A DNA stretch of 64,000 bases from Octopus vulgaris (GCA_951406725.2 OX597815.1:64790001-64854000), one strand, 5' to 3'; shown: positions 209 to 62,372, numbered from the stretch's first letter. Program-made: numbers and translations. Notes: a model not told the origin generated them from the sequence alone.

Positions 209-326
209 TATATTTATTATTCTTTGACGAGAATAGTATCGGCAGTGACTTCGAAGTTTCAGTCAGCTAACTCCGAAACTTCGAAGTCACTGCTAATACT
301 ATTCTTGTTAAAGAATAATAAATATA
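209..326. repeat. 52-bp imperfect inverted repeat; probable head-to-head remnant of two PLE pLTR ends
   Basis: Arms 209-260 and 275-326 are reverse complements with 4 mismatches; each arm read outward begins GAAAC-TTCGAA-GTC-ACTGC, the 3' half of a minimal hammerhead (GAAA, palindromic stem III, GUC). Confidence 0.65.
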
Positions 327-439
327 AATATGTATCAGTGCGTTAGTCTTCTGCATAGTTTCCGTCGAATAAATTCACTCACAACACATTGGTTTCGCCG
401 GGGCTATTGAAGAATGTGCCGCTCTCATGGACTGAAACA

Positions 440-790
440 TTAGCACGCCAGGCGAAATGCATAGCGATATTTAGTCTGCGTTACGTTGTGAGTTCAAATT
501 CCGCCGAGGTCGACTTTGCCTTTCATCCTTTCGGGGTCGATAAATTAAGTACCAGTTACGCACTGGGGTCGATGTAATCGACTTAATACCTATGTCAGTC
601 CTTGTTTGTCCCCTCTGTGTTTAGCCCCTTGTGGGTAATAAAGAAATAGGTATTTAGTCTGTCTTTACGTTCTGAGTTCAAATTCCACCGAGGTCGACTT
701 TGCCTTTCATCCTTTAGGGTCGATAAATTAAGTGCCAGTTGCGTACTGACCCCCTCCCCAAAAATTTCGGGCCTTGTGCCTAGAGTAGTA
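440..790 (+). mobile_element. Meta-domain-type tRNA-derived SINE, two partial copies in tandem
   Basis: B box GAGTTCAAATTCC then GCCTTTCATCCTTTCGGGGTCGATAAATTAAGTACCAG, repeated at ~675-745; first copy ends in a LINE-like tail with AATAAA. Confidence 0.75.
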
Positions 791-1324
791 AAAAACTCTT
801 AACAGCACAGGTTAATCTGCGCCTATTTTTTTTTTTTACTTTTCCTTTTTATGTACATTGTTAAGTAGGCATAGTGAGAGTAGTGGGTGTGGGTAAATGT
901 ATCTGTGGTGGCTTAGCAAAATATACGAACTGATATAGATGCGTATTTAGTGCCATTGAAAAATTTGGCCCACGAGAAGATTTTTGGCAGTTTGAAAGCA
1001 GGCTCAAACAGGTATGATTTATTCTTAGTTTAAAATTCATCAGAAACCATTTAGTTCTCCTTCAGAAAACGAGGTCCAAAGTAACGAAAGGTAACGAAAG
1101 ATCCTAAATAACGAAAGGTCCTAAGTAGCAATAGAACACTTCTCAGATATAAGCAAATATGTACAGAGATGACGCAATTACAATAATGATAACAATGGGG
1201 ATAAAATTATTTATCCATGTAGCCGTATTTAGCTGTATAGTTTTTTTTAATAATTATGATGAGTAAACATTAATACGGTTGCGGGGAGGCGTACTTTAGC
1301 CTTATCAGGAGTTAACAGATGTCT

Positions 1325-1690
1325 TTTATCTTTTCTCTTTTATAGTTTCAGTCATGAGACTGCAGCCGCGCTGGGGCGCCGCCTTGAAAACTTTTCAGTC
1401 GAATGAATCGACCCCAGTATTTTTATTGGTGTCTTTTGCCAAACTGCTAAGTTACGAGGACATAGATACACTAACAACGGTTGTCAAGAGGTGGTAGGAA
1501 CCAAACACAAACACACATACATATAAATAAATACATATACGACGTGCTTCTTTCAGTTTTCATCTATCAAATCTACTCACAAGACTTTGGTTGGCTCGAG
1601 CCCATAGTAGAAGACACTTTTTAGTGGGACTGAACCCAGAACCATGTGGTTGAGAAGTAAACTCCTTACTACACAGCCACGCCTGCACTT
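1325..1690 (-). mobile_element. CORE-type tRNA-derived SINE
   Basis: Reverse complement of the family at 45462-45895 (tRNA-like head GTGGCTGTGTAGTAAG...GGTTCAGTCCCAC, tail TGACTGAAAC...AAAAG). Confidence 0.8.
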
Positions 1691-2072
1691 ATTGTTGTCT
1701 AAAGATGACGTACAATTCCTATACTGAGGGCTCTAATTTGTGCTGGTTGTGTTGTAGGAATTTCGACACACAGAAAAGATATCAACATTATTCAGTTATA
1801 ATATAATCATTTAGCTAATGAAGTTCGTGATCAGCTATTCGTTTTCAATCGAAAAAAATACATTTATGCTTCTGATGCTCTTGAAAAAGACATGAGCTCT
1901 CTTCATTTATAAATACTGTAAAAAGTATACGAAAAATAACATTTCAAAAATCAGTGAAACGGAAATATATTTTTAAAAAAGCAGAAAAAAAGAAAAATAT
2001 TTTAAATATAAAAAAAGATGTAACATTTTCAAATGTTCAACAGCAATAAAACAAAATACGAAAAAGAATTAA

Positions 2073-59834: not shown

Positions 59835-59835
59835 T

Positions 59836-61487
59836 TAAGATCCACAAAAGTGAAAAAATAAGCAACGCATGCAAGATAGCTACAGACAAAATAATTAAAG
59901 TCCCTAATCCTAATGACCTCAAATTGAGACCCATAATAGCAGGTCCCGCATGCGAAACCCACCGCCTCAGTAACTTTTTAGACACCCTGTTAAAACCACT
60001 CCTCAAACATGTCAAAAGCTATATAAGGGACGACTTAGATATGCTCAATCACCTACCGAATACTATAAACAAAAACACCATACTGGTATCCTTCGATGTA
60101 GTCAACCTCTACTCCAATATCCCCCACAACCTAGGACTAGAGGCAATCCAATTCTGGCTAGAGAATCACGCCAACGAACTACCACACCGCATCAAAAAGA
60201 ATTTGTGATAGAAGGGGTTAAATTCATCCTGGAAAATAACTTCTTCGCCTTCAATGACAACTTCTACCGACAAAAATCGGGGACTGCGATGGGTACACGA
60301 ATGGCCCCCTCCTTTGCCAACCTAGTCATAGGATACCTAGAGATCAGTCTGTATCGTAAGGTTCTAGAAAGATATGGCAGCCCTTTCTCCATCTACATAG
60401 AAAACAACTGGAAGAGATATCTAGATGACTGTTTCATCCTTTGGCATAAAAATATAGAAAAACTCATAGAATTCCAGAAAATTTTAAACGGACTGGACGT
60501 AAACATCCAATTCACGATGGAATATAGCCAACAACAACTCCCCTTCCTCGATATCCTCATTAAGAAAGCTAATAATATAATAGAAACAGACATATACTAT
60601 AAGCCTACAGACTCTAAGCAATATCTTCCATTCAATTCATGCCACCCCAGACACACCAGGATGAATATCCCCTTCAATCTAGCAAAAAGGATATGCACTA
60701 TAGTCTCTAACGCAAACACCAGAGACACACGACTACAAGAACTAAAAGATGCCCTAATCACCAGGAACTATCCACCTTCACTTATTGACAAGTGCATTCA
60801 ACGTGCCCTTCAACTTAACATCAAGGAACTGAGACATCCCAAATCAAAGAAAAACTTACAACCAAAAGCCTTACCATACATCTCCACACACAACCCTCTC
60901 AATAACGAAGCCTTCGACACCATCCTCCACAACATACCCCTCCTAAAAAAGACCACAGAATGAACACAATCCTCCAAACACACACGATCATAAAAAGCAA
61001 AAGACAGCCTAGATCCATGAAAAGTCTCCTTACACAAGCCCGAATTCACTCTTCAACACAGAAGCCGACAGTAAAAAAATGTGGAAGACCCAATTGCGGG
61101 ATATGCGACTATCTAATCGAGGGTTCTGAGTTCTCCTTCAAACAGGGACAACGGTTTACAGTGAAAAGCAACTTCACATGTGCTTCGGAGAACATAATAT
61201 ACTCACTAACCTGCTCCGGGTGTCAAGAGCAGTACATAGGCCAAACAAAAAATGGTTTGCGTAAACGAATGGCCCTGCACAGATCCCAGATAAAAATTCC
61301 CCAAAACAGAAAAATAGCTTTTAGCCAACACATAGATACTTGCGCCAACAAAAAAACACCAAACTTCAGAATTTTCCCCCTCTACCAATTTAGGGACGAT
61401 ACAACCTCGAGACAAAGAATAAGTAAAGAAAATCTCTTTATTACAAAATACAAGCCACTTCTTAACGGGTCTACGACAAACAATTAA
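59836..61487 (+). pseudogene. Inverted 5'-truncated copy of the PLE RT/EN frame
   Basis: Same translation as the minus copy except single-A deletions in homopolymers at ~60196 and ~60948. Confidence 0.9.
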
Positions 61488-62203
61488 TATACCTCAACTT
61501 TAGAATAAAAGAAAAAAATATATATACACACACAAATACTACACTCCATAGAATCCATTACTAATCAGCCCCTTCATAGCTATATTTACACCCATTCATA
61601 TTCTCCCTTCTCTGTTTTTTTCTTCTTCTTCTTCTTCATCATCATCGTTATCATCATCATCGGCGTCATCATCATCGCCACCATCATCACCACCATCTTC
61701 TCCTTCTCCTCCTTCTTCTTCTTCTTCTTCTTCTTCTTCATCATCATCGTTATCATCATCATCGTCGTCATAATCATCACCACCATCACCATCATCTTCT
61801 CCTTCTCCTTCTCCTTCTTCTTCTTCTTCTTCTTCTTCTTCTTCTTCTTCTCCACCCCCTACCCCTTAAGTTTGTCACTAATGTTTTTTAGTATAACACC
61901 TACGCTAATTCTATAAACAAGCCTGTCGATATAAATATTCTCCTGAATTGAACTGAGACTGCCAGCCGCCACTGACCATTCAAAATACGACCATCAGGGC
62001 ACTCCCAGATTCTCCCACCCCCTTTCCTCACCAGCCTTCCCTCTACTACCCTACCAAGAACTCACAACTACCTCGAACACACAAGTGCAAACAAGGGAGT
62101 CAGAGAAAGGCAGAATGCCACTTAAATCTGAACACTACTATAGAAATATTGTTTTAAAAAAACTTTTCTTCTAATTTTTCTAAATTTAATTATTTAATCG
62201 TTA

Positions 62204-62241
62204 CAGTTGAAAAGGTCTCAAAATGACCGAAACCGGTACTG
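62204..62241 (+). ncRNA. Minimal hammerhead ribozyme, U3-A8 variant
   Basis: CAG-TTGAAAA-GGTC-TCAAAAT-GACC-GAAA-CCG-GTA-CTG; palindromic ACCGGT stem III. Confidence 0.75.
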
Positions 62242-62372
62242 AAATGTTCACTATAAAATTATTTTAGCATTTTCTATTTTTTACTTGTTTTTTCATATAT
62301 ATCAACTCGTGTGTTCCTTTTCACCCTTATACATATATATATATATATATATATATATATATATATATATAT

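Follow-up and report, generated by a model that had tools for sequence, protein, structure and literature searches.

How does a retroelement come to lie head-to-head with a shorter, inverted copy of itself, and is this the usual outcome of its integration? Both questions are raised by a stretch of 64,000 nucleotides from Octopus vulgaris (GCA_951406725.2, OX597815.1:64790001-64854000), called the window below, whose DNA is rich in microsatellites. An earlier note had described here five inverted arm pairs with outward-pointing 3′ ends and had assigned them to Penelope-like elements (PLEs). Self-comparison of the window returns all five where the note had placed them (sites 1 to 5, Table 1), with a similarity far above chance. 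We consider it probable that three of the sites are, and the other two likely are, insertions of endonuclease-bearing PLEs in which each copy is joined head-to-head to a shorter inverted copy, both nicked strands of the target likely having served as primers.

Coding evidence for a PLE origin is present at three of the five sites (3, 4 and 5). At sites 1 and 2 such an origin is likely, and there the hammerhead motifs alone point to it. The arms of site 2 agree at 151 of 157 positions, and the arm pair of site 3 has an E value of 3.7e-6 in self-BLAST. At site 4 the arm core (33558-33621/34873-34935) is 93.75% identical over 64 nt, and the similarity extends to about 33536/34959. The arms of site 5 (55733-58201/59836-62302) are identical save for two one-base losses of A in the right arm. 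The family labels proposed in the note largely hold, that is, Poseidon-type at 34 kb, Neptune-type at 56 kb and non-coding elements elsewhere, but the supposed Naiad at 13 kb belongs to the Hydra clade.

Table 1. Position of the inverted arm pairs and of further elements in the window (RT for reverse transcriptase; EN for endonuclease; ORF for open reading frame; pLTR for pseudo-long terminal repeat; TSD for target-site duplication; UTR for untranslated region)
Feature	Position	Strand	Description
Site 1 left arm	209-260	(-)	3′ half of minimal hammerhead and downstream sequence, no CUGANGA
Site 1 spacer	261-274		14 nt, near-palindromic
Site 1 right arm	275-326	(+)	48/52 identical to left arm
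Site 2 left arm	3891-4046	(-)	Complete minimal hammerhead, core 4009 to 3928
Site 2 right arm	4094-4250	(+)	Complete minimal hammerhead 4132-4214; (TA)n at end
Site 3 inverted arm	13091-13117	(-)	Copy of 16013-16039, 27/27; adjoins (TA)n; without ribozyme
Site 3 main copy	13118-16230 (3′ end approximate)	(+)	5′-truncated Hydra-clade PLE
Site 3 hammerhead	16042-16119	(+)	GAAA degenerated to AAAA
Site 4 TSD, left copy	33522-33536	(+)	15 bp, 1 mismatch
Site 4 main copy	33536-34837	(-)	5′-truncated Poseidon-type RT and GIY-YIG; stops, frameshifts; 3′ end without tail
Site 4 tRNA-like head	33664-33724	(-)	In 3′ UTR; A box at 33717, degenerate B box at 33672
Site 4 inverted arm	34838-34993	(+)	pLTR, hammerhead core 34862-34902, tail about 34957-34993
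Site 4 TSD, right copy	34991-35005	(+)	15 bp, 1 mismatch
Site 5 main copy	55733-59834	(-)	Near full-length Neptune-type PLE, in (TA)n
Site 5 genes	ORF1 59792-58839; RT-EN ORF 58902-56548; hammerhead 55828 to 55789	(-)
Site 5 heptamer U UUU UUA	58872-58878	(-)	In ORF1/RT-EN overlap, in phase for -1 shift
Site 5 inverted copy	59836-62302	(+)	5′-truncated, 2467 nt; hammerhead 62207-62246
Site 5 candidate tail	62303-62327	(+)	25-nt extension, inverted arm only
Heptamer in relatives of site 5 (locus:position)	L001:586, L002:1330, L003:1747, L004:549, L007:2127, L008:1451, L009:3263, L010:331, L011:1267, L082:1202
Solo element	62373 to about 62870	(-)	Intact hammerhead 62707 to 62613, long stem II; adjoins site 5
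Shorter 3′ fragment	16400-16585	(+)	Family of the solo element at 62373-62870; non-inverted
238-bp insert	4290-4526	(-)	Between (TA)n runs; CTGAAGA core, degenerate second half; uncertain candidate
Unit with direct repeats	49024-49646		Between (TA)n runs; 55-bp direct terminal repeats, period 568; uncertain candidate

The layout of the five sites is very probably the published head-to-head layout of PLEs. An inverted 5′-truncated copy with the tail at one end is given as the typical PLE insertion in the legend to Figure 2 of Craig et al. (2021; PMC8557442), head-to-head is the most frequently observed arrangement according to Arkhipova et al. (2013; PMC3846280), and for Drosophila virilis a partial tandem flanked by inverted repeats is reported as the most frequent structure (Schostak et al. 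2008; PMC2377424). The endonuclease-positive elements of these papers share with our sites the inverted 5′-truncated copy at the 5′ end, a tail of 30-40 bp at one end, a TSD around the entire unit, a hammerhead near the 3′ end and (TA)n targets. They differ in having an upstream direct pLTR (the partial tandem), which none of the five sites has, and from site 3 in that the arm there ends before the ribozyme. Because the architecture, the one-sided tail and small interfering RNAs (siRNAs) from inverted arms are all published, the five-site finding is already known. As stated in the note it re-observes the standard PLE layout and has little import. How the inverted copies and the tails are formed, however, is named as an open question by Craig et al. 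(2021).

Ribozymes were searched for with a custom descriptor. Six hits in the window scored at least 28, compared with 0.17 hits per shuffled window at this threshold (12 shuffles). Among the 150 of 292 rows listed from the Rfam output for the window, which are dominated by microsatellite matches to microRNA models, there is no hammerhead, and the sole Rfam hammerhead match, HH9 at 62193-62257 (19.7 bits), lies under the cut-off of 52. Descriptor matches place a predicted hammerhead near the 3′ end at sites 2 to 5, and it is because of this position near each element's 3′ end that the ribozymes face outward. The outward-facing pair claimed for all five sites is found at three of them, those at 3.9, 34 and 56 kb, and is lacking at 209-326 and at 13 kb. 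At 3.9 and 56 kb both arms carry minimal type-I hammerheads with a palindromic stem III (variant core UUGAAAA). At site 4 each arm has a core and both are damaged, the left by a 7-nt loss and the right by an altered base in stem III. Site 3 has a single ribozyme in its main copy, and the 27-bp arm ends at 16039, just short of it. In site 1 each arm starts at GAAAC followed by a palindrome and GUC, CUGANGA is absent, and the spacer between the arms is likely a remnant of stem II.

The evidence on how such a unit arises comes mainly from site 4. Its RT and EN motifs were found by eye in broken frames, and the C-terminal EN with CCHH and without a CX2-5CxxC linker is, from this translation by eye, of the Penelope/Poseidon type. 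A 15-bp duplication surrounds both copies, so the unit most likely arrived as a single event. The tail sits on the short inverted arm, and the long arm stops before it. Genome-wide claims were probed via public contigs only: we aligned contigs of four runs to 33440-35090 at 80% likeness. Both flanks are covered in runs X1 and X4, though not in X11 or X15, and none of the listed pieces spans the whole stretch. Contigs come loose at 34990-34993 in all three DNA runs and at 34956-34959 in two of the three, beyond which they enter unrelated flanks (agreement about 0.4). These two clusters give the family a pair of 3′ ends, spaced about 35 nt from each other, and show that the tail is derived from the element, as expected of the one-ended tail of endonuclease-positive PLEs. 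The note had seen a tail on one arm also at 56 kb, where the 25-nt extension is a candidate, and at 3.9 kb, where it cannot be told from the flank.

On balance we favour priming from both ends of the cut as the mechanism. In vitro, the Poseidon protein of Anolis carolinensis cuts both strands and extends them, with two start sites located on either side of the tail (Frangieh et al. 2024; PMC11167929). The octopus family resembles it in its two tail-bracketing 3′ ends and in AT-rich targets. The first half of that paper covers nicking and extension of both strands without a model for inverted insertions. We suggest that integration could proceed in the following steps. The GIY-YIG enzyme would make a staggered double-strand cut in an AT-rich or (TA)n target (compare PMC11167929). 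Each nick would then prime at one of the two starts bracketing the tail, so that the tail appears at one end only; two 3′ end positions about 35 nt apart do occur in the 34-kb family. The two 5′-truncated cDNAs would be joined, often with a few extra bases, and the target would be duplicated around the entire unit, as the 15 bp at 34 kb indicate. The two-ended priming proposed by the note is therefore the best-fitting mechanism at 34 kb. L1 twin priming also produces head-to-head joints when the second nick primes an inverted segment; there the second nick primes internally, yielding non-overlapping segments. By contrast, both arms reach the 3′ end at sites 1, 2, 4 and 5.

The note went further and held that inverted integration is the dominant PLE outcome in this genome and a systematic source of hairpin RNA. 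In this strong form we regard the claim as doubtful. In its favour are the five inverted sites, of at least three clades, within 64 kb and the joints of the site 4 family: among the 15 listed of 990, 13 lead head-to-head from the body to an outward arm and none is tandem, the other two being an internal deletion and a switch between two arms. Of the joints with extra bases, all 12 listed (of 613 rows) go from body to arm, the strand not being printed. For this family, inverted joints thus likely exceed tandem ones. However, the 5′ half of the element is missing from the reference, and a solo copy yields no joint. Moreover, the five inverted sites stand among nine PLE-type candidates in the window; the four non-inverted ones were left uncounted by the note (last four rows of Table 1). 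The 4290-4526 insert is likely a decayed solo pLTR, and the unit at 49024-49646, with a hammerhead-like remnant on the minus strand, is possibly a tandem-type non-autonomous element. Self-repeats in 83 related loci (39 direct, 22 inverted, 35 none) were rejected as a tandem-to-inverted ratio, many being contig-end overlaps or unrelated repeats.

As to the hairpin RNA, siRNAs matching inverted Penelope arms are known from Drosophila (PMC3681739), and the long inverted arms of Penelope in D. virilis, which could pair as double-stranded RNA, resemble those here. Any promoter lying within a head-to-head unit would face outward, and its transcript would contain a single arm, which speaks against a systematic source; a hairpin would require a transcript that starts at a promoter beyond the unit and runs through both arms. 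Long hairpins in read-through RNA of sites 1 and 2 follow trivially from their arms (predicted folds of -73.6 and -250.6 kcal/mol). No RNA dataset is listed as carrying 33000-35300. In run X15, whose type as RNA is guessed and whose contigs drop rare variants, one of the 13 listed inverted joints is found; A>G and T>C places number 29 and 48 there versus 39 and 48 in a DNA run, which is no excess, and given these limits the comparison speaks neither for nor against hairpin RNA.

Several points weigh against both-strand priming as the origin of all five sites. A clear target duplication was not found at sites 1 to 3 (site 3 has an 8-bp candidate in a microsatellite), the site 3 arm reaches neither the ribozyme nor the 3′ end, coding sequence is absent from sites 1 and 2, for which no autonomous partner emerged, and the joint count comes from 15 of 990 joints. 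In addition, Arkhipova et al. (2013) proposed self-priming on an antisense template instead. Accordingly, a palindrome in an antisense template or in the first cDNA could let the strand fold back or prime itself and so give rise to the inverted copy, the tail being added when the endonuclease resolves the structure, a step proposed by Craig et al. (2021). Site 1 pivots on its near-palindromic spacer and the short arm of site 3 is a subset of the long copy, as fold-back would have it. In the site 4 family, however, inverted arms start at many positions (34838-34958) and not at a single palindrome, and the short arm of site 4 has about 35 nt of element sequence absent from the long arm. A fold-back copy cannot exceed its template, so this arm would need separate priming on element RNA. 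Taken together, the target duplication and a tail borne by the short arm speak for separate priming of the two copies, and we hold fold-back copying to be unlikely. Where one family has very many copies in the genome, counting which arm bears the tail could separate the two mechanisms. The 27-bp arm of site 3 may instead stem from internal priming or a template jump.

It is improbable that the elements at 209-326 and 3891-4250 represent DNA transposons of the miniature inverted-repeat kind, or local fold-backs, with no relation to PLEs. They have no ORF and short spacers, and tblastn within the window found no partner, nor any PLE coding match beyond the sites already known. The mariner-like unit at 4981-5468 is laid out differently, though, site 1 retains the 3′ half of a hammerhead, and both arms of site 2 have a full minimal hammerhead with the palindromic stem III typical of PLE repeats (PMC4209133). 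Very improbable is an assembly or chimeric-read artefact behind the 2.47-kb repeat at 56 kb, which the near identity of the arms (both losses lie in A runs) would suit, as the site is asymmetric, with a unique 1634-nt spacer that carries on the main copy, flanks that differ and an extension confined to one arm.

At 13 kb, the main copy holds a remnant of the RT thumb and, C-terminally, a GIY-YIG endonuclease, the ORF ending at 14143 before a long 3′ UTR. Naiad was rejected: the endonuclease ends the ORF downstream of the thumb remnant instead of being N-terminal, between GIY and YIG there is one cysteine and not the pair of CCHH, and a hammerhead is present. The copy has the Hydra signature, that is, a CxCX5C linker and C-terminal CxxC and CxH without CCHH. 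Among its best 150 relatives, 102 share CxCX5C, 124 CxxC and 131 CxH. The RT core with the DKT/motif B region is lost from the copy itself; in its long relatives the RT lies upstream of the EN, and of the 18 with at least 550 aa, 14 have DK[TS] and none ADKG, and seven have a Hydra-type and none a canonical motif B. With the EN of site 3 as query, a search for longer proteins returned 0 of 63, and a single-protein metagenome scan 0 of 73. The Hydra clade of Craig et al. (2021; File S1 and Fig. S7), to which Hydra-1_Obim of Octopus bimaculoides belongs, agrees in the C-terminal GIY-YIG and CxCX5C, in the C-terminal CxxC and CxH without a CCHH pair, in the hammerhead and in the (TA)n target. The linker of Hydra-1_Obim as printed is unlike that of site 3, which keeps no RT core, and site 3 is thus likely another family. 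At 13400-13720 the ORF has a long N/T/Q-rich linker between thumb remnant and endonuclease, which recalls the N-rich inserts of rotifer Penelopes (PMC3846280).

The 34-kb family is set off from the Anolis Poseidon by a tRNA-like head in its 3′ UTR. ARAGORN makes no tRNA call on it. The surroundings of its predicted polymerase III start (near 33724) are where nine of the 13 listed inverted joints begin (33716-33731), and the summed depth in X1 falls there from 3.1 to 1.2 million. Over X1/X4 this depth is about 4 million for the pLTR, 0.05-0.9 million for the body and 57-95 for the flanks; we rejected it as a measure of copy number. These observations suggest that the Poseidon-type family has an abundant short form, like a short interspersed element (SINE). 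Such a head would offer a PLE a way of becoming SINE-like. Our literature search, mostly of titles and listings and with repeat databases outside its scope, found no description of one in PLEs.

Site 5 lies in (TA)n, and its protein matches RVT_1 (E = 3.6e-8) and GIY-YIG (E = 3.2e-4). The CX2-5CxxC linker before the C-terminal EN and the DKG motif make it Neptune-type, by motifs; Nematis shares the linker. The cysteine pattern occurs in all 120 listed protein relatives and ADKG in 115. In contrast to single-ORF endonuclease-positive PLEs, the element has two overlapping ORFs, the first starting with ATG at 59792, and the split recurs in all eight loci with an ORF1 homolog. Among the 120 protein relatives, all of at most 803 aa, none matches ORF1. 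Of the 83 related loci fetched, 21 have a hit to the RT N-terminus, and in 10 of these a run of exactly six T precedes an A or G, in the phase that the U UUU UUA heptamer has at site 5. The heptamer is in phase in every one of the eight loci that have an ORF1 homolog, and ORF1 stops 12-22 codons downstream of it. Upstream of the hit, over 240 nt, runs of at least six T share the heptamer phase in 11 of 12 cases (window included), and inside the ORF such runs number 5, 4 and 3 across the three phases. The heptamer loci are at most 73% alike, save L008 and L009 at 88%. A sequencing error was rejected as the source of the T6 run.

From this pattern, the conserved U UUU UUR is likely a programmed -1 ribosomal frameshift site in Neptune-type PLEs. 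Two results weigh against it: the stretches downstream of the slippery sites show no stimulatory structure of note (z from -1.8 to +1.4), and the ORF1 frame is broken in L008 and L009. Alternatively, the region could be a splice acceptor, since seven of 11 heptamer sites read TTTTTTAG, a possible acceptor. A conserved slippery site would alter the single-ORF picture of such elements and their annotation. The legend to Figure 1 of Craig et al. (2021) mentions an ORF1 set apart by a frameshift, the clade being unnamed in the visible text, and the Neptune frameshift may thus already be known. Our literature search, with Arkhipova 2006 and 2017 outside its scope, found no paper describing one for Neptune elements. 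In L081, L082 and L083 PLE RT-endonuclease genes lie inside contigs of bacterial genome bins; they are most likely contaminating animal DNA.

A more far-reaching proposal, which we put forward only tentatively, is that a Poseidon-type family of this animal gained an internal tRNA-like promoter and spawned a very abundant, short SINE-like element with a ribozyme, integrated by priming from both nicked strands with head-to-head replacing tandem copies, alongside a Neptune-type lineage whose RT-endonuclease is made by a retrovirus-like -1 ribosomal frameshift from the upstream ORF1.

Some further features of the window were noted. A tRNA-Ser(CGA) gene lies at 2073-2154 on the minus strand (Rfam, 66.2 bits). 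The unit at 4981-5468, in TA context, is bounded by terminal inverted repeats of 52 bp and holds another inverted pair inside; we take it to be a mariner-type miniature transposon. At 51184-52282 there are two tandem copies of 481 bp, 94% alike and both closing with (AAT)n, and a third copy lies at 22067-22437; from their sequence the 3′ ends appear retroposon-like. Finally, a 146-bp unit is tandemly duplicated at 41187-41480, the two copies being 88% alike.

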